Shown here: piece by piece, positions 15,845 to 59,759 of the stretch | Position numbering within the stretch: the stretch's first letter is position 1 | How the letters are laid out: each line of letters opens with the position of its first letter | From: Carcharhinus amblyrhynchos | Taxonomy: Eukaryota | Length of the DNA: 64,000 bases | NCBI GenBank assembly: GCA_965287045.1 | Contig: OZ336870.1 | Location: 108,128,001 to 108,192,000, forward strand | Direction: 5' to 3' | Made by a program: the position numbers and the translations under genes | The notes under the pieces: generated by a model | The model's input: the letters and a program-made list of their open reading frames with translations, nothing else | Told to the model about the DNA's origin: nothing | Database searches by the model: none

Positions 15845-16030
15845 CCAATGTTATATCTCCTCAACATTCACATGAAGGTGCCAGGTGGAGAGTATAGAAT
15901 ATTGGGTGTAATTGAGGAGTGTATTATGGTATCATGGAGGGAACTGTGCCTTCAGAATGCTGAAAGGAGAAGGAAAGGTGCATTTAGAAAAGGAAATGGT
16001 GGATCAAGGTCATTTGGCAGAATATTTCAT
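15845..16030 (-). mobile_element. Upstream continuation of the Penelope-like remnant, separated by the Rex1 insertion
   Basis: Minus strand encodes an FLLLSAF*RHSSLHDTII-like segment typical of the PLE RT-endonuclease linker (PLSAFRRDRSLRDSLV). Confidence 0.5.
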
Positions 16031-16795
16031 CACCAAACAAGCTTCAAGACCTAGCTTAGCTGGTGGTGAGAAAGGCCCTCCCATCAGATCTTTCCTACAT
16101 GCCAGGAGCATGTTGCCCTTGAGGTGACTGTGGTGGGGAAGGTCACAATTGTTGACCTCCTTGTGGAATGTGCCTATACAAAAAAGGTGTGGAGAGAGAT
16201 GGGATGATTTTTGTCCAGGTTCACCCCCAGCAGCTCCATGATGCAGGAATCTGTGGTCTACGGGATGCACTCTGAGACGAACATCAGCTATTGGTGGAGG
16301 ATCATCAACTCAGTGGAAGATGTTCTTTTGATCTGCCTGAAACTTGTTTGGCTCCAATACAAGGAAATGTCCCTGGCCAAGTGCTGCAGACTGGCACATT
16401 CCAATGCCCAGGCCTGCCTGTTGAGGGGCACACTAAAGCTTGGGGCAGCTGCTGCCGAGGTGCAATACAGGAAGGTCGCTGTCTGAGATCTTTCAGCCAC
16501 AGTGCACCGAGAGGAGGGGAACTGCATGGAACCCCTTCAGGCTGTATGACTTACATTGATTGTATACAGTGAATGTTACATATATCACAATTGCATTGAA
16601 ACATCTCAGAGTGCAACTTGATCTAGATAGACAACTTAAATATCTTTGCATCGTTTATAATGACCATATTGAAATAGCTGTATGTTTCTTTGACTGTATT
16701 GAAGAGTCTCAGAGTGCAACATGATGTACATAGAACATGAATATTATTGCATTTTATGTGATGGCAGTTTTGAAATGTTTGAAATGTTCTTTCAG
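16030..16795 (+). mobile_element. L1-Tx1 clade LINE 3' fragment (end of ORF2 and 3'UTR)
   Basis: SRFTPSSSMMQESVVYG...WRIINSVEDVL...CCRLAHS...LKLGAAAAEVQYRKVAV* resembles fish Tx1 ORF2 C-termini. Confidence 0.65.
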
Positions 16796-17115
16796 ATTTC
16801 TTTTTGCAAAAATATACTTTATTCATATAAAATCTGGAAGACACATTACAAAACATCTCCAAGGATGACAGATGAAATTTACATTTTCTCCAGAGGTGCT
16901 TCAGTTCAATAATAAGATCATTACATATATTTCAATATTTTTATTATAGAGAAAAATTATTTACAAACTATATACTTAGGTCATGTTGCACTCTGCAGTA
17001 CTTCAATGACGTTACACATAGTTGAAATTAAACACACGGTCTGAGGGGTTTTACCCGGTTATTAGCCCCTCGGTCTACGTTGGTTAAAAGTCCTCACACA
17101 GTGGCCTTCCCCCAT
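16796..17115 (-). mobile_element. Second Tx1-like 3' end, opposite orientation
   Basis: Minus strand has WGKATV* then a 3'UTR homologous to 16460-16790, ending gaataaagtatatttttgcaaaaag. Confidence 0.6.
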
Positions 17116-17524
17116 TACACCTTGGTGATTACAAGTATATCTTTGCAAAAAAAGTCCTTCGATGTGGTTATATCTAGCCCTCAGTAGGAGGTTTGTCTCC
17201 AACAACCGGTGTGGTTATTATAGCTTGGCGCAGGAAAAAGACCATTCACACATTCTCAAGTGGCCATTATCCAGTCCAATTTCTGTAGACAAAGTGTCTG
17301 TGGCAAACCACCACCTCAAGGATCTGTGTGTTTGTGTGTGTATTTAGTCAAATAAATAAAACTGAAAATAAAAAGCTGCTAGCAGCAAAAGTGACCTTGG
17401 ATTTGTCTGACTGGTAGAAACCCAACTGGTCCACTAATACCTTTTTTCCAAAACATAAACTTTATTCCTAAAATTTACACAAGTACTTTGTGATAATTCG
17501 AAGTTGACATTACTGTGTTGCAGT

Positions 17525-39843: not shown

Positions 39844-42800
39844 GAGGACTGTAGACAGGGCTTTAAACTAATTAGGGGGGGGGAGGGTGCGAGGGTAGGT
39901 GACGCTACGAGGTCTAAAGTTAAGGATAGGGTACAGGTAAGGGAAGAGGCCGAGGATGTCCCAATTGGTGGCGTTACGGCAAATAGGGTCCAGGTGAAGG
40001 CTGGGATGAAAGCACTTTATCTGAATGCACGAAGCATTCGGAATAAAGTGGATGAGCTGGTGGCGCAGATCGACACAAATGGATACGATCTGGTGGCCAT
40101 TACAGAGACGTGGCTGCAAGGTGACAGGGACTGGGAGATGAATGTACAGGGCTATCAAGTGTTTAGGAAGGATAGGCAGGAGGAAAGAGGGGGTGGCGTA
40201 GCTCTGCTGATTAAGGATAGTATCAAGGTGGTAGCAAGGGATGATATCGGAGCCAAAGAGCAGAAAGTGGAATCGTTGTGGGTGGAGATTAGGAACAGCA
40301 AAGGGAGGAAGACGCTGGTGGGTGTCGTCTATAGGCCCCCGAATAATGATCTGGAGGTGGGGCGGGCTGTTAACACGCAAATAAGTGCGGCGTGCAGGAA
40401 TGGGACGGCAGTAGTTATGGGAGATTTCAATCTGCATATTGATTGGTCGACCCATGTTGGACGAGGTGGGCTCGAGGAGGAGTTCCTGGAATGCTGCCGG
40501 GATAATTTCCTTGAACAGTGTGTGTTGGAGCCGACGAGGGAGCGAGCTATCTTGGATCTGGTGCTATGTAATGAGGCGGGTAGAATTAGGGACCTTGCGG
40601 TGAAGGATCCTCTTGGAGAGAGTGATCATTGTATGGTGGAGTTTCTGGTGCAGATGGAGGAGGAGAAAGTGGGTTCCCGGACACGCGTCCTTTGTTTGAA
40701 TAGAGGGGAGTATGGTAGGATGAGAGAAGAATTGGCGAATGTGGACTGGGGGAGTGCGTTGGAAGGTAGGTCTGCTGAGGAGCAGTGGAGGATCTTTAAG
40801 GAGATCTTTCTTGGTGCTCAGCAGAAATTTATTCCGATGGTTAAAAAGGACAGTAGGAAGAGAGGTAATAAGCCGTGGATAACGAAGGAGGTGAAGGAAA
40901 GTGTTAAATTAAAAGCGGAGGAATTTAGAGTAGCTAAGAGTAGTGGGCGAGAAGAGGATTGGGAAAGGTTTAAATGTCAACAAAGATTGACAAAGAAGTT
41001 GATAAAGGAGGGTAGGAGAAGCTATGAGGCTGGGCTAGCACTTAATATAAAAAAGGATAGCAAGAGTTTTTATAAATATATAAAAAGGAAGAGGCTGGCT
41101 AGGGTGAACGTTGGTCCTTTAGAGGATGAGAAAGGGGAGCTAGTGGTAGGGGATGGGGATATGGCTAAGGTCTTGAATAACTTTTTTGTTTCTGTCTTCA
41201 CGGAGGAGGACGTGAATAATTTGCCGGGTGTTAGCGATGGAAAGGTGGTAGGAATGGAGGGTCTTAATGACATTACTGTTACTAGAGAGGTGGTGCTCGA
41301 CAGACTGGAGGGGCTGATTGTGGACAAGTCCCCAGGACCGGATGGAATGCATCCGAGGGTTCTGAAAGAAATGGCGGAGGTGATAGTGGATGCCTTGGTG
41401 GTTATTTTCCAGACGTCGCTGGATTCCGGGGAAGTGCCGGAAGATTGGAAAACGGCTAATGTTACGCCGTTGTTTAAGAAGGGTGCCAGGCAAAAGGCGG
41501 GGAATTATAGGCCGGTTAGTTTAACGTCTGTGGTAGGTAAAATGTTAGAATCCGTCATTAAGCAGGAAATTGCGAGGCATCTTGAAGGGAATTGCTTGAT
41601 AGGGCGGACGCAACACGGTTTCATTAAAGGGAAGTCGTGTCTGACAAATTTACTGGAGTTCTATGAGGATGTGTCTAGGGCAGTGGATAGAGGAGAGCCG
41701 GTGGATGTGGTCTTTCTGGATTTTCAGAAGGCGTTTGACAAGGTACCTCACAAGAGGTTATTGCAGAAGGTCAGGGGACATGGAGTTGGGGGTAGGGTGT
41801 TAGCGTGGATAGAGGATTGGTTGTCAAATAGGAGGCAGAGAGTGGGGGTCAATGGGTGCTATTCGGATTGGCGGTTGGTGACTAGTGGGGTGCCCCAGGG
41901 GTCGGTGCTGGGGCCTCAGCTATTTACCATTTATATAGATGATCTGGAGGAGGGAACCGAGTGCAGGGTGTCGAAATTTGCTGATGACACCAAGATTGGG
42001 GGAAAGGCAAATTGTGCGGAGGGTTTGGAGAGTCTGCAGAAGGATCTAGATAGGCTGGGCGAATGGGCCAGGAAATGGCAAATGGAATTTAATGTTGGCA
42101 AGTGTGAGGTGGTCCACTTTGGTAGGAATAATGGTAGGAAGGACTATTACTTACGTGGCGAAAAACTGCAGCAGGCGACGGTGCAGAGGGACCTCGGGGT
42201 CCTTGTGCATGAGTCGCAAAAACCCAGCTTGCAGGTGCAGCAGGTGGTCAGGAAGGCGAATGGGATGCTGGCCTTCATAGCGAGGGGGATTGAATATAAA
42301 AGTAGGGAGGTCTTGCTGCAGCTGTATAGGGCATTGGTGAGGCCGCAGCTGGAGTACTGTGTGCAGTTTTGGGCGCCGCACCTGCGCAAGGATATTTTGG
42401 CCCTGGAGGGAGTGCAGAGGAGGTTTACTAGGCTGATACCGGAGTTGAGGGGATTGAGCTATGAGGAGAGGCTGAATAAACTAGGCTTGTACTCGTTAGA
42501 GTTTAGAAGAATGAGGGGAGATCTCATTGAGACGTATAAGATGATGAATGGGATGGATAGGATAGAGGTGGAGAGACTCTTCCCGCTCAAAAAAGACAGT
42601 AGGACTAGGGGGCACAGCCTCAAGATAAAGGGGAGGCGGTTTAGAACGGAGTTGAGGAAGAACTTCTTCACTCAAAGGGTGGTGAATCTCTGGAATTCTC
42701 TGCCCGTTGAAGTGGTGGACGCTGCCTCGCTAAATATTTTTAAGAAGCGGGTTGATGGGTTCTTGATAAGAGAGGGGATTAAGGGTTATGGGGAGAGGGC

Positions 42801-42916
42801 GGGAAAGTGGAACTGAGCCACAACAGATCAGCCATGATCTTATTGAATGGTGGGGCAGGCTCGAAGGGCTAGATGGCCTACTCCTGCTCCTATTTCTTAT
42901 GTTCTTATGTTCTTAT
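39844..42916 (+). mobile_element. Young CR1 LINE, 5'-truncated (no ORF1) with complete intact ORF2
   Basis: Uninterrupted APE+RT frame; (TTCTTATG)n tail; GTA at both junctions inside a Penelope-derived element. Confidence 0.95.
40006..42816 (+). CDS. CR1 ORF2: APE endonuclease plus reverse transcriptase (936 aa from MKALYLNARS)
   Basis: YLNARSI, ITETWL, GDFN, LDL, SDH (APE); [33 protein letters not shown] (RT). The start codon is inferred. Confidence 0.88.
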   Translation: MKALYLNARSIRNKVDELVAQIDTNGYDLVAITETWLQGDRDWEMNVQGYQVFRKDRQEERGGGVALLIKDSIKVVARDDIGAKEQKVESLWVEIRNSKGRKTLVGVVYRPPNNDLEVGRAVNTQISAACRNGTAVVMGDFNLHIDWSTHVGRGGLEEEFLECCRDNFLEQCVLEPTRERAILDLVLCNEAGRIRDLAVKDPLGESDHCMVEFLVQMEEEKVGSRTRVLCLNRGEYGRMREELANVDWGSALEGRSAEEQWRIFKEIFLGAQQKFIPMVKKDSRKRGNKPWITKEVKESVKLKAEEFRVAKSSGREEDWERFKCQQRLTKKLIKEGRRSYEAGLALNIKKDSKSFYKYIKRKRLARVNVGPLEDEKGELVVGDGDMAKVLNNFFVSVFTEEDVNNLPGVSDGKVVGMEGLNDITVTREVVLDRLEGLIVDKSPGPDGMHPRVLKEMAEVIVDALVVIFQTSLDSGEVPEDWKTANVTPLFKKGARQKAGNYRPVSLTSVVGKMLESVIKQEIARHLEGNCLIGRTQHGFIKGKSCLTNLLEFYEDVSRAVDRGEPVDVVFLDFQKAFDKVPHKRLLQKVRGHGVGGRVLAWIEDWLSNRRQRVGVNGCYSDWRLVTSGVPQGSVLGPQLFTIYIDDLEEGTECRVSKFADDTKIGGKANCAEGLESLQKDLDRLGEWARKWQMEFNVGKCEVVHFGRNNGRKDYYLRGEKLQQATVQRDLGVLVHESQKPSLQVQQVVRKANGMLAFIARGIEYKSREVLLQLYRALVRPQLEYCVQFWAPHLRKDILALEGVQRRFTRLIPELRGLSYEERLNKLGLYSLEFRRMRGDLIETYKMMNGMDRIEVERLFPLKKDSRTRGHSLKIKGRRFRTELRKNFFTQRVVNLWNSLPVEVVDAASLNIFKKRVDGFLIREGIKGYGERAGKWN

Positions 42917-49384: not shown

Positions 49385-51970
49385 ATTTTGCTCCTGACCT
49401 TATTACAGCTTTGGTCTAACCATGGACAAAAGAGCTGAACTCCAGAGGTAAGGTGAGTTGAGAATGACTGTCCTTGACATCATGGCAGCATTTGACTGGA
49501 TGCGAGTCCTAGCAAAACTGCAATCAATGGGAATTGGGGGAAAACCCTCCAATGTTGAAGATTGAAAAGCGGCTAATGTTACGCCGTTGTTTAAGAAGGG
49601 TGGCAGGCAAAAGGCAGGGAATTATAGGCCGGTTAGTTTAACGTCTGTTGTAGGTAAAATGTTAGAATCCGTCATCAAGGAGGAAATAGCAAGGCATCTT
49701 GAGGGCAATTGCTTGATAGAGCAGACGCAGCACGGTTTCGTTAAGGGGAAGTCGTGTCTGACAAATTTACTGGAGTTCTATGAGGGTGTGTCTAGGGCGG
49801 TGGATAGAGGAGAGCAGGTGGATGTGGTCTTTCTTGATTTTCAGAAGGCGTTTGACAAGGTACCTCACAAGAGGTTATTGCAGAAGGTCAGGGGACATGG
49901 AGTTGGGGGTAGGGTGTTAGCGTGGATAGAGGATTGGTTGTCAAATAGGAGGCAGAGAGTGGGGGTTAATGGGTGCTATTCGGATTGGCGGTTGGTGACT
50001 AGTGGAGTGCCCCAGGGGTCGGTGCTGGGGCCTCAGCTATTTACCATTTATATAGATGATCTGGAGGAGGGAACCGAGTGTATGGTGTCGAAATTTGCTG
50101 ATGACACCAAGATTGGTGGAAAGGCAAATTGCGCGGAGGGTGTGGAGAGTCTGCAGAAGGATCTAGATAGGCTGGGCGAATGGGCCAGGAACTGGCAAAT
50201 GGAATTTAATGTTGGTAAGTGCGAGGTGGTCCACTTTTGTAGGAATAATGGTAGGAAGGACTATTACTTACGTGGCGAAAAACTGCAGCAGGCGACGGTG
50301 CAGAGGGACCTCGGGGTCCTTGTGCCTGAGTCGCAAAAACCCAGCCTGCAGGTGCAGCAGGTGGTCAGGAAGGCGAATGGGATGCTGGCCTTCATAGCGA
50401 GGGGGATTGAATATAAAAGTATGGAGGTCTTGCTGCGGCTGTATAGGACATTGGTGAGGCCGCAGCTGGAGTACTGTGTGCAGTTTTGGTCGCCGTACTT
50501 ACGCAAGGATATTTTGGCCTTGGAGGGAGTGCAGAGGAGGTTTACTAGGTTGATACCGGAGTTGAGGGGGTTGAGCTATGAGGAGAGGCTGAATAAACTA
50601 GGCTTGTACTCGTTAGAGTTTAGAAGAATGAGGGGAGATCTCATTGAGACATACAAGATGATGAATGGGACGGATAGGATAGAGGTGGAGAGACTCTTCT
50701 CGCTCAGAAAGGACAGTAGGACTAGGGGGCACAGCCTCAAGATAAAGGGGGGACAGTTTAGAACGGAGTTGAGGAGGAACTTCTTCACTCAAAGGGTGGT
50801 GAATCTCTGGAATTCTCTGCCCGTTGAGGTGGTGGAGGCTGCCTCGCTAAATATTTTTAAGACGCAGGTTGATGGGTTTTTGATAAGCGAGGGGATTAAG
50901 GGTTATGGGGAGAGGGCGGGAATGTGGGACTGAGCCACGACAGATCAGCCATGATTTTATTGAATGGTGGGGCAGGCTCGAAGGGCTAGATGGCCTACTC
51001 CTGCTCCTATTTCTTATGTTCTTATGTTATGTTTGGATTCATACCTGACACAAAGGAAGATAGCTGTGGTTATTGGAGGTCAATCATCTCAGTCCCAGGA
51101 CATTGCTGCAGGAGTTCCTGAGGATAATGTCCTACACCCAAACATCTTCAGCTGCTTCATCAAAGACATTCCTTCCATCATAAGCTCATTCATGGTTAAA
51201 AGGAAAAAGTGAGGACGTTCAGCATTGTTTGCATCTCCGTCAGACACTGAAGCAGTTCAAATGCAGCAAAACCTGGACAATACCCAGGCTTGGGCTGACA
51301 AATGGCAAGCAACATTCACGCCAAATGTACCGTGAAATGACCATTTCTAAGAAAAAGAGGATCTAAACATATTCTCTTGATATTCAATAGCATTATTATC
51401 ACTGAATCCCCCCACTATCAACAACTAAAGTTACCATAGACCTGAAACTGGACTAGCCATATAAATATTGCAGCAGTGAGTAACTCGCCTACTGACTTCC
51501 CAAATCCTGTTCACCATCTACAAGCCACAAGTCAGGAGTATCATGGAACATCCTCCAATTGCCGAGATGAGTGCAGGTACAGCAATGCTCAAGAAGCTCA
51601 ACACCTTCCAGGGCAAAGTAGCCCACTTGATTGGCATACCCCTCACCACCAATGCACGTCGACAGCAGTGTGTACCATCTACAAAATGCACTGCAGTAAC
51701 TCACCAAGGCTCCTTCGATTATACTCATGACTTCCACCAAGCATAGCAGATGCACGACAGCACCACCCAAAGCAAGTCACACACCACCCAAACGTGCAAG
51801 TATATCCCCGTCCTTCCTGAAACTCCATTCTTACTGTGGATGTATCTACACCACATGGACTGCAGTGGCTCAATAAGATGGTTCATCCCCACCTAAAGGG
51901 AAATTCGGGATGGATAACAAATGCTGACCTTGGCAGTGATGCTCACATCCCATGAAAGAATAAAAAAAGA
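49385..51970 (+). mobile_element. Older CR1/L2-group LINE fragment (family of 22808-24298), split by a young CR1
   Basis: PDLITALV..WTKELNSRG..LQSMGIGGK before the insertion; LDSYLTQRKIAVVIGGQSSQ..AGVP after it; tail ends gaataaaaaaa. Confidence 0.75.
49557..51028 (+). mobile_element. Young 5'-truncated CR1 LINE (448-aa open RT frame)
   Basis: Near-identical to 41440-42916; TTCTTATG tail. Confidence 0.92.
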
Positions 51971-52152
51971 GGATCGGAATTGTGGGACAGGGGTTTGTAG
52001 TAAAAGGAAAGCTAGGGGTTACCAATCACTGTCAAGGAGTTAATGACTGAAGTATGTAGCCAGCAAACCAATTTTTTGGAAAACTGGGAAGTGGTGAGAC
52101 TAGTGATTGATGCACAAGATCAGCACTGAGTCAGCCCTCGAAAGGTATGAAA

Positions 52153-53495
52153 ATAAGAACATAAGAAATAGGAGCAGGAGTAGGCCATCTAGCCCTTCGA
52201 GCCTGCCCTGCCATTCAATAAGATCATGGCTGATCTGAAGGTTATCAGTTCCACTTGCCCGCTTTCTCCCCATAACCCTTAATTCCCTTATCTATCAGAA
52301 ATCTATCTACCCATGACTTAAATATGTTCTATGAGGTAGCCTCCACCACTTCAATGGGCAGATAATTCCAGAGATTCACCACCCTTTGAGTGAAGAAGAG
52401 CCTCCTCAACTCCGTTCTAACGTGTCCCCCCTTTATTTTGAGGCTGTGCCCTCTAGTTCTGATATCCTTTCTAAGCAGGAAGAATCTCTCTACCTCTACC
52501 ATATCCATTCCCTTCATTATCTTGTAAGTCTCTATAAGATCCCCCCTCAGCCTTCTAAACTCTAACGAGTACAGACCTAGTCTATTCAATCTCTCTTCAT
52601 AGGCTAACCTCCTCATCTCCGGTATCAGCCTGGTGAACCTTGTCTGTACTCCCTCCAAGGCCAATATATCCTTTTGCAAGTGCGGCGACGAAAACTGCAC
52701 ACAATACTCCAGCTGCGGCCTCACCAGTACCTTGTACAGTTGCAGCAAGACCTCCCTACTTTTATATTCTATCCCCCTCGCTATGAAGGCCAACATTCCA
52801 TTCACCTTCTTGACCACCTGCTGCACCTGCAGACTGGGTTTTTGCGATTCGTGCACAAGGACCCCCAGGTCCCTCTGCACTGTAGCATGCTGCAGCTTTT
52901 TGCCCTTTAAAGAATAATCCCTATTATTATTTCTACCAAAGTGGATAACCTCACATTTGCTAACATTATGCTCCATCTGCCAGGTCCTCGCCCACTCAGC
53001 CTATCTAGATCCCTCTGCAGACTTTCCACACCCTCCACGCAATTTGTTTTTCCACTCATCTTCAGCAGCAAATTTCGTCACCCTACACTCAGCCCCCTCC
53101 TCCAGATCACCTATATAAATCGTAAATAGCTGAGGCCCCAGCACTGATCCCTGCGGCACTCCACTAGTCCCCAACCGCCAATCAGAATAGCACCCATTGA
53201 TACCAACTCTCTGCCTCCTATTAGACAACCAATCCTCAATCCACGCTAACACCTTACCCCCAACTCCATGCACCCTCACCTTTTGCAGCAACCTTTTATG
53301 TGGCACCTTATCGAATGCCTTCTGGAAATCTAAAAACACCACATCCACCGGTTCCCCTCTGTCTACCGCACTAGTCACATCCTCATAGAAATCTAATAAA
53401 TTCAATAAACACAACTTCCCCTTAACAAATCCGTGCTGCGTCTGCTTGATCAAACCGTTCTTTTCTAGGTGTCTTGCTATTTCTTCTTTGATGAA
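52153..53495 (-). mobile_element. CR1 LINE 3' portion, related subfamily, with frameshifts
   Basis: ORFs 53001-53576 and 52329-52976 match the young CR1 RT; tail ataagaacataagaaatagg. Confidence 0.9.
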
Positions 53496-53883: not shown

Positions 53884-54141
53884 TTTTTTTTTGTTTTTAT
53901 TCCAATTCAATCAAATCAAGCCCAATTCAGAGTCCCAACAAGTTGGGACATTCCCAATCCAAGCTGACAAGACAGGTCTCTCACCTCCAGTCTTGGGCTT
54001 GATCTACATGATCTAAGCTGATTGCAGTAGACATAGCTCCTAAGAAATAGGAAATAGGAGCAGGAGTAGGCCATCTGGCCCTTTGAGCCTGCTCCAAGGC
54101 TTGATCTCATTTGCATCTTAGCCAAAAGACCAAGATGCCGC
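53884..54141 (-). mobile_element. Candidate U2 snRNA-headed short retroelement (SINEU-like) with AATAAA and A-tail
   Basis: Minus strand TCTTGGTCTTTTGGCTAAGAT (54135-54115) versus U2 TCTCGGCCTTTTGGCTAAGAT; ends GGAATAAAAACAAAAAAAAA; carries a CR1-tail insert at about 54041-54095. Confidence 0.55.
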
Positions 54142-54249
54142 TTTTAAAAACTGCTTCAAACGATGCTAAAATGTAACCTAATGACTTCAACCAAGCACAG
54201 CATGTCGATACTGCACTTGATGTTGAAACTTATCACATTTTAATCTCTC

Positions 54250-58853: not shown

Positions 58854-59759
58854 AGGCAAATTGTGCGGAGGGTGTGGAGAGTCTGCAGAAGGATCTAGAT
58901 AGGCTGGGCGAATGGGCCAGGAAATGGCAAATGGAATTTAATGTTGGCAAGTGTGAGGTGGTCCACTTTGGTAGGAAGAATGGTAGGAAGGACTATTACT
59001 TACGTGGCGAAAAACTGCAGCAGGCGACGGTGCAGAGGGACCTCGGGGTCCTTGTGCATGAGTCGCAAAAACCCAGCTTGCAGGTGCAGCAGGTGGTCAG
59101 GAAGGCGAATGGGATGCTGGCCTTCATAGCGAGGGGGATTGAATATAAAAGTAGGGAGGTCTTGCTGCAGCTGTATAGGGCATTGGTGAGGCCGCAGCTG
59201 GAGTACTGTGTGCAGTTTTGGGCGCCGCACCTGTGCAAGGATATTTTGGCCCTGGAGGGAGTGCAGAGGAGGTTTACTAGGCTGATACCGGAGTTGAGGG
59301 GGTTGAGCTATGAGGAGAGGCTGAATAAACTAGGCTTGTACTCGTTAGAGTTTAGAAGAATGAGGGGAGATCTCATTGAGACGTATAAGATGATGAATGG
59401 GATGGATAGGATAGAGGTGGAGAGACTCTTCCCGCTCAAAAAAGACAGTAGGACTAGGGGGCACAGCCTCAAGATAAAGGGGAGGCGGTTTAGAACGGAG
59501 TTGAGGAGGAACTTCTTCACTCAAAGGGTGGTGAATCTCTAGAATTCTCTGCCCGTTGAAGTGGTGGAGGCTGCCTCGCTAAATATTTTTAAGAAGCGGG
59601 TTGATGGGTTTTTGATAAGAGAGGGGATTAAGGGTTATGGGGAGAGGGCGGGAAAGTGGAACTGAGCCACAACAGATCAGCCATGATCTTATTGAATGGC
59701 GGGGCAGGCTCGAAGGGCTAGATGGCCTACTCCTGCTCCTATTTCTTATGTTCTTATGT
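58854..59759 (+). mobile_element. Young 5'-truncated CR1 LINE inserted in the head of a SINE (SHROOM3 last intron)
   Basis: Almost identical to 42005-42910; TGG>TAG nonsense change at 59540-59542. Confidence 0.92.

Follow-up and report, generated by a model that had tools for sequence, protein, structure and literature searches.

The closest described systems are the SINEU elements of crocodilians and the U2-specific LINEs Keno and Utopia. In the available text of PMC4494074, SINEU is recorded from no lineage outside crocodilians, and in the accessible parts of PMC5786205, PMC5381603 and PMC5499810 it is either placed in crocodilians or unmentioned. A literature search at the level of listings and abstracts returned no snRNA-headed SINE from sharks or other cartilaginous fishes; Repbase, Dfam, subscription journals and supplements may list such a family. 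For SINEU, Kojima proposed template switching onto U2 snRNA and left the way of transcription as an open question (PMC4494074, in the text available), on which the element described here bears. The published 3' boundary of both Keno and Utopia is U2 nucleotide 39 (PMC4640811, in its available part).

The stretch analysed here, hereafter the window, comprises 64,000 nt of the Carcharhinus amblyrhynchos genome and carries one copy of a short U2-headed element. We consider it probable that this element is a retroposon that begins with U2 nt 1-40, occupies the insertion site of Keno between U2 nt 38 and 39, is copied by the proteins of Keno and, when it lies in a U2 gene, is transcribed from the U2 promoter. 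The window copy occupies 53884..54221 on the minus strand (as do all its parts given below), is 5'-truncated and belongs to the older of two subfamilies, A, whose majority sequence it matches at 273 of 287 letters when a 51-bp insert is set aside. Alignment of 30 fetched loci revealed that homology stops sharply at the A tail and reaches about 160 nt further 5' than the query. The sequence-only reading had ended the element at 54141, 80 bp short of its 5' end, and had placed the 5' junction at TTTTAAAA, which is internal. It had also seen the head of the element in a U2-like stretch at 54113..54138; inspection by eye confirmed 19 of 21 letters as identical to nt 7-27 of the genome's own U2 on the minus strand, but this stretch is an internal U2 unit, the second of the element (U2 nt 4/7-27), and forms an extended stem I. 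What remains of the true head lies at 54207..54221 and comprises U2 nt 26-40 of the family's nt 1-40.

Next to the head remnant, a wobble-diverged, inverted copy of U2 nt 11-39 (54175..54203) is predicted to fold back onto the head and cover the branch-point-recognition sequence. It is followed at 54141..54166 by a small hairpin, decayed in this copy, and a U-run that the Rfam U2 model aligns to the Sm site, with the closing G absent. Downstream of the internal U2 unit lies hairpin X (54010..54106), whose 3' arm had been read as a second U2-like unit; that likeness comes partly from a G>A change private to this copy. Hairpin X is split by the 51-bp insert (54041..54091), which is not family sequence but the 3' tail of an abundant LINE, which we take to be CR1-type, inserted later. 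The previously suggested insertion of a CR1 tail therefore stands, at 51 bp; at the GCTCC microhomology named with it, GCTCC was not duplicated, and the family has a GGA-repeat at that place. The element lost 2 nt at the insertion point, where a short microhomology is seen on the 5' side. Four long repeats of the window have 3' tails that match the insert at 91-92%, and one of these repeats codes a 458-aa RT-like frame; these four CR1-type copies (41440-42911, 49557-51028, 52146-53494 and 58854-59759) are 83-96% identical to each other. Hairpin Y (53956..54004) is a paralogue of X with the same outer stem and internal loop and a different, still pairing inner stem. At 53932..53949, hairpin Z agrees with the inverted repeat already noticed there, though it folds with 7 bp and a 4-nt loop instead of 8 bp, and one of its pairs is changed on both sides between the subfamilies. 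The AATAAA and A-rich tail are found at 53884..53901, as first read. No target-site duplication (TSD) above chance flanks the window copy, and the Rfam scan of this truncated and interrupted copy gave no U2 match. Elsewhere in the window, old fragments resembling the Keno-type LINE described below were detected at 16009-17116 (69% over about 460 bp, with short pieces at 82-92%).

The family sequence is about 315 nt long, non-coding and A-tailed. Its nt 1-40 equal U2 nt 1-40 (compared with the genome's own U2 and Rfam RF00004), so the consensus head does converge on U2, and nt 44-72 form an ungapped inverted copy of U2 11-39. Over these 29 positions, subfamily B has 18 Watson-Crick pairs, 7 G-U, 0 A-C and 4 others (P = 3e-5 for the Watson-Crick count), and subfamily A has 16, 9, 0 and 4, respectively. 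The inverted arm is followed in order by the small hairpin, the U-run, the second U2 unit, hairpins X, Y and Z, AATAAA and As; sense and antisense U2 pieces together account for the first 135 nt. Hairpins X and Y are paralogous, their outer stems being identical and their inner stems different. Folding z-scores for nt 1-300 of the majority sequences are -4.9 (A) and -6.1 (B), and in the lowest-energy fold of A, X is partly paired with the 3' end instead. The two majority sequences differ at 15 positions, among which two pairs are compensatory: 150/176 is TA in 43 of 49 A copies and CG in 7 of 14 B copies, and 252/263 is TA in 34 of 49 and CG in 13 of 14. On these folding models the inverted arm is predicted to close over the head and its branch-point-recognition sequence. 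All seven transitions in the inverted arm keep pairing through wobble (about 0.035 by hand), which lends the fold modest support, the span having been chosen by its pairing. ADAR editing was considered as the source of the A>G changes in this arm and rejected, as it leaves the C>T changes unexplained.

The U-run occupies element nt 95-103 (window 54141-54152) between two hairpins, at a distance from +1 close to that of the Sm site of U2. One copy, L010, reaches 46.0 bits against the Rfam U2 model, equal to the gathering score, with the U-run aligned to the Sm site and hairpins on either side. A functional Sm site was rejected, because the U-run has no closing G.

To assess the abundance of the element, the 3' 157 bp were searched against the window's own genome (2.92 Gb, 1,520 contigs), which gave 1,440 first-look candidates; 40 were scored, of which 39 were non-self at 93-95%. 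Exact matches numbered 1,251 for a 24-mer spanning the head junction and 1,462 for a body 24-mer, and reversed-pattern controls gave 0, therefore the element is not a product of chance, and its previously proposed character as a dispersed, multi-copy element is borne out. On the first 172 Mb of contig C1, a hand count of the two sets of matches (76 and 100) gave 36 in common, which suggests about 3,000 copies or more genome-wide. Thirty position-sampled copies comprised 13 of subfamily A (mean identity to the majority 94.0%), 14 of subfamily B (97.0%, up to 99.6%) and 3 unassigned. At least half of the sampled words were present in runs of eight coded organism labels (19 of 24 rows; 4 rows may be the source), so the family extends beyond this assembly. 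The expectation of A tails and TSDs across copies held for the A tails; TSDs are irregular and rarer in A, a score of at least 9 being reached by 5 of 14 copies in B and by 4 of 46 in A (tandem locus L020 dropped; shuffled pairs 5/295). Four runs guessed to be RNA have contigs in all 28 bins of the element; many of these are long host contigs, and they do not show start, strand or level of transcription. That this is a real multi-copy, non-coding retroposon family is, in our judgement, practically certain.

The partner LINE was recognised by its 3' junction. An A run followed by U2 from nt 40 onward was matched 313 times, overlaps included (control 0), and at 10 distinct loci inspected the A run belonged to the 3' end of a LINE in eight and to the short element in two. 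Full-length copies of the LINE are 5.4 kb and lie in a 407-bp tandem U2 array on contig C98, and truncated copies interrupt 2 of 12 promoter-bearing U2 genes on contig C45; in both arrays the A tail is joined to U2 nt 39, as expected from insertion at nt 38/39. ORF1 encodes ZCCHC3-type RNA-binding domains and a zinc knuckle, and ORF2 encodes APE, RT and zf-RVT domains. Among solved structures the best relative is L1 ORF2p. In the database the top relatives are proteins of amphibians (45-47%), while the partial match of highest identity comes from Heterodontus francisci (67% over 8% of the query); none of the proteins returned bore the name Keno or Tx1. Judged by its sequence, with two ORFs, an ORF2 bearing APE and RT, and insertion before U2 nt 39, this LINE appears to be Keno-type. 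The earlier suggestion of an L1/Tx1-type partner thus found a candidate that uses the same insertion site.

One full-length copy (L079:2764-8178; G000:C98, about 57.8-63.2 kb) has ORF1 and ORF2 frames of 419 and 1190 aa, both open. The array holds several near-identical copies, including tandem insertions, with 5' junctions that mostly duplicate 7-19 nt of U2, and the beginning of the LINE 5' UTR is GC-rich with a possible structure. The 407-bp units represent a variant U2 gene type without the canonical upstream region (G000:C98:25001-235000 and C334:120001-160000; L041-L045, L076-L086, L169-L182); in 250 kb they comprise 264 intact U2 units and 39 3' halves beginning at nt 38/39, and may be a class of expressed paralogues or may serve Keno as a sink. 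Canonical U2 genes form a 10.5-kb tandem array at G000:C45:1.85-1.96 Mb (L031-L038). The assembly has 12 near-identical promoter-bearing U2 copies, 10 intact and two Keno-interrupted.

The short element is found at the same spot. It is joined directly to U2 nt 39 in all seven matches of the subfamily-A tail+U2 pattern and in 3 of 5 matches of the B pattern (the other two are unrelated; controls 0), and L046 and L026 are further cases. In L047/L162, a spacer and host U2 1-38 are followed by a full element with its own head, an A tail and U2 39-45, the host being a decayed unit of the 407-bp type. Possibly L026, L046 and L053 are insertions into an older U2 pseudogene. Keno is directly abutted by 3 of 72 element copies and lies 118 bp from a fourth; 182 kb of further flank contained no separate Keno match. 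None of the 30 position-sampled copies lies inside a U2 gene, which indicates weak targeting. Since the element occupies the same place in U2 genes as the larger Keno-type LINE, it likely borrows the enzymes of the LINE, and we regard Keno as its partner with considerable confidence. Stacks of short elements alternating with Keno fragments, with U2 pieces between, were observed at L164 (G000:C19:3.01 Mb), L162, L165 and L020, and tandem copies of the short element are present among these loci.

Traces of former source copies are carried by the tails. Five of the seven A-pattern matches consist of the tail, U2 39-45/47, a second A run and unrelated flank; two of these five (L097 and L102) are headless, and are therefore not plain insertions into a U2 gene. 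The same U2 39-45/47 with a second A run was recognised by eye in 2 of the 30 position-sampled copies (L121 and L131). L099 carries head, body, As, U2 39-149 and again As as a single block within a local repeat (by eye), and L026 reads on for about 40 nt into genomic sequence 3' of a promoter-bearing U2 gene. All four long U2 pieces score higher against the promoter-bearing U2 type than against the 407-bp type, and transduced U2 tails at unrelated flanks were observed in subfamily A only. Copies at the 38/39 site, together with dispersed copies carrying downstream U2, therefore argue that some sources lay inside U2 genes. We infer that transcription of these copies began at the U2 start site, likely under the U2 promoter, and that the RNA was polyadenylated; it is fairly likely that such sources were the main route. 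Efficient polyadenylation of transcripts from snRNA promoters is disputed.

The 5' starts were examined in 66 copies, of which 15 were not scorable; 49 of the other 51 begin at +1 or inside U2, one at -1 and one at -17. L148, on a U2-cluster contig, retains just 36 nt of U2 upstream flank, and the dispersed copy L009 has 17-20 nt of similar flank; these were the only two copies with at least 17 nt of it (flank query; 13 of 30 other element places inspected). By eye, L149 and L151 have 24-32 letters not from U2 between the apparent TSD and +1, a sign of sources that lay outside U2 genes. The ends of extra heads fall at U2 nt 38-51, where the Keno 5' junctions also fall. The promoter-bearing master copy that the sequence-only reading had suggested looking for was not found: the element is present in 0 of 12 present-day promoter-bearing U2 genes and in none of the 407-bp units in the 250 kb of arrays read on C98 and C334. 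Some 430 bp downstream of the degenerate promoter copies at C45:1.757 and 1.954 Mb an element is present, with other sequence between, and the one on C14 has none. At L091:2100-2370 and L104 (C45:1.955 and 1.756 Mb), a decayed U2 promoter and U2 nt 1-18 are followed by an antisense stretch, which by eye resembles processed ribosomal-protein sequence, and then by a partial element; the arrangement is duplicated as an inverted pair.

The following life cycle may be proposed. Copies stand at U2 38/39, and the adjoining U2 sequence has travelled with the element to unrelated loci. RNA polymerase II would start at U2 +1 and produce a transcript of U2 1-40 plus the element. Its polyadenylation would fall at the AATAAA of the element or shortly after it, in some cases within U2 nt 45-47 and in others far beyond. 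Keno ORF2 would then prime reverse transcription on the A tail, with no need for a common 3' tail and mostly at non-U2 sites; an occasional return into a U2 gene would renew the source and could add an extra U2 head. By the predicted fold, the antisense arm would hide the branch-point-recognition sequence in the head, so that the RNA would neither act as U2 nor compete with it. Hairpins X, Y and Z are predicted structures that may be under selection, with a likely role in RNA stability or protein binding.

A different origin for most transcripts would keep Keno as partner and place most sources outside U2 genes, where they are read through from host promoters, the U2 head having been fixed once and the extra heads added by template switching onto U2 snRNA. 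The 5' extensions within the TSDs of L149 and L151 fit this account, as do the vacant promoter-bearing U2 genes of today and the element copies within long contigs of runs guessed to be RNA, and the extra heads of L002, L009 and L158 could be template switches. However, it leaves unexplained the U2 3' pieces from nt 39 behind the tail, in dispersed as well as headless copies, and the genomic U2 flank in L026 and L009, and the extra heads end in the very range of Keno 5' junctions. We therefore hold it to be unlikely as the account of most sources, though the two routes may both operate. The preferred reading remains that the main sources lay in U2 genes.

Two further explanations deny the element its separate status. 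It might be a non-autonomous derivative of a Tx1/L1 family that is extinct or yet to be identified, made up of its 5' and 3' ends or of its 3' UTR, with the U2 head as target sequence taken along. The tail of subfamily B and the Keno 3' end do have a 9-letter poly(A)-signal motif in common, and the comparison covered one LINE family. Against this, no significant alignment was obtained with the 5.4-kb Keno-type LINE (AATAAA(G) and As are all that is in common), inspected copies never extend 5' into common LINE sequence, and the first 135 nt are accounted for by U2; the element is thus not the 3' UTR of the one LINE family compared, as the sequence-only reading had allowed it might be, and we think such a derivation improbable to a high degree. 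Still less credible is a set of processed pseudogenes of a variant snRNA gene that was functional, namely a U2 that had been rearranged and had an Sm-like site. The U2 score of L010, with its U-run flanked by hairpins, would suit such a gene, but that score comes mainly from nt 1-40, the U-run is not closed by a G, and AATAAA with A tails, successive subfamilies and the absence of a promoter-bearing gene among those searched speak for a retroposon.

Beyond the preferred reading, a broader one is offered tentatively, and we would not put it at even chance: the element would be an independently evolved parasite of snRNA genes, a non-coding RNA that cycles through U2 genes by means of the Keno endonuclease, takes promoter and head from the U2 gene in which it has landed, and locks the branch-point-recognition sequence with its antisense arm so that its transcript spares splicing. 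This would explain in general terms how snRNA-headed SINEs that lack a promoter come to be transcribed. The genome keeps traces of the transcription route, in copies at the Keno site and in dispersed copies with the downstream half of a U2 gene. The family would mean that SINEs with an snRNA head arose a second time in vertebrates, probably independently, and would represent a SINE paired to a site-specific LINE through the target and not the tail. It also offers a testable system, as the LINE ORFs look intact and element copies are up to 99.6% alike, and young dispersed copies may serve as presence/absence markers in sharks.

Among known systems, classical Pol III SINEs (with a tRNA, 7SL or 5S head) were rejected as a class for this element, as the Rfam scan of a good copy matched U2 and nothing else, and the element has internal T-runs and AATAAA. 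A deletion derivative of Keno was likewise rejected, there being no significant alignment to the full-length LINE. Keno (Tx1 clade) and Utopia are alike in having the A tail followed by U2 nt 39 (PMC4494074 and PMC4640811, in their available parts), whereas the short element, compared with Keno, codes nothing, has no sequence in common with it, bears a U2 head of its own and is for the most part dispersed. R2, as described in the accessible text of PMC4494074, likewise borrows its promoter from the target RNA gene; it is autonomous and cuts itself from a 28S rRNA co-transcript, whereas here the 5' part of the target is kept as the head. Processed snRNA pseudogenes and snRNA-L1 chimeras, in the same part of PMC4494074, also fuse a U2 5' fragment to another RNA; since at least 1,251 copies have the same fixed junction and the subfamilies have changes in common, the present copies are not independent chimeras.

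The closest likeness is to crocodilian SINEU-1, -2 and -3 (here and below from the available text of PMC4494074), which are also short (<500 nt) and A-tailed, with an snRNA-derived head and no evident Pol III boxes, show repeated addition of U2 pieces, have a TSD or none, have no tail in common with a LINE, and have a Tx1-type partner inferred from the common target. The shark family has the corresponding class features: a U2 snRNA head, many dispersed copies of common structure, a length of about 315 nt without coding capacity, poly(A), variable alteration of the target site and a target preference, though a weak one, in common with a Tx1-type LINE (U2 nt 38/39 and adjacency to Keno). It differs in its lineage, in the evidence for sources inside U2 genes, in its target partner (a U2-specific Keno-type LINE here, Mariner-N4/Tx1-Mar for SINEU), and in the antisense U2 arm and twin hairpins, which that text does not mention for SINEU. 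By these class features, and not by homology of the body, the element may be described as SINEU-like.
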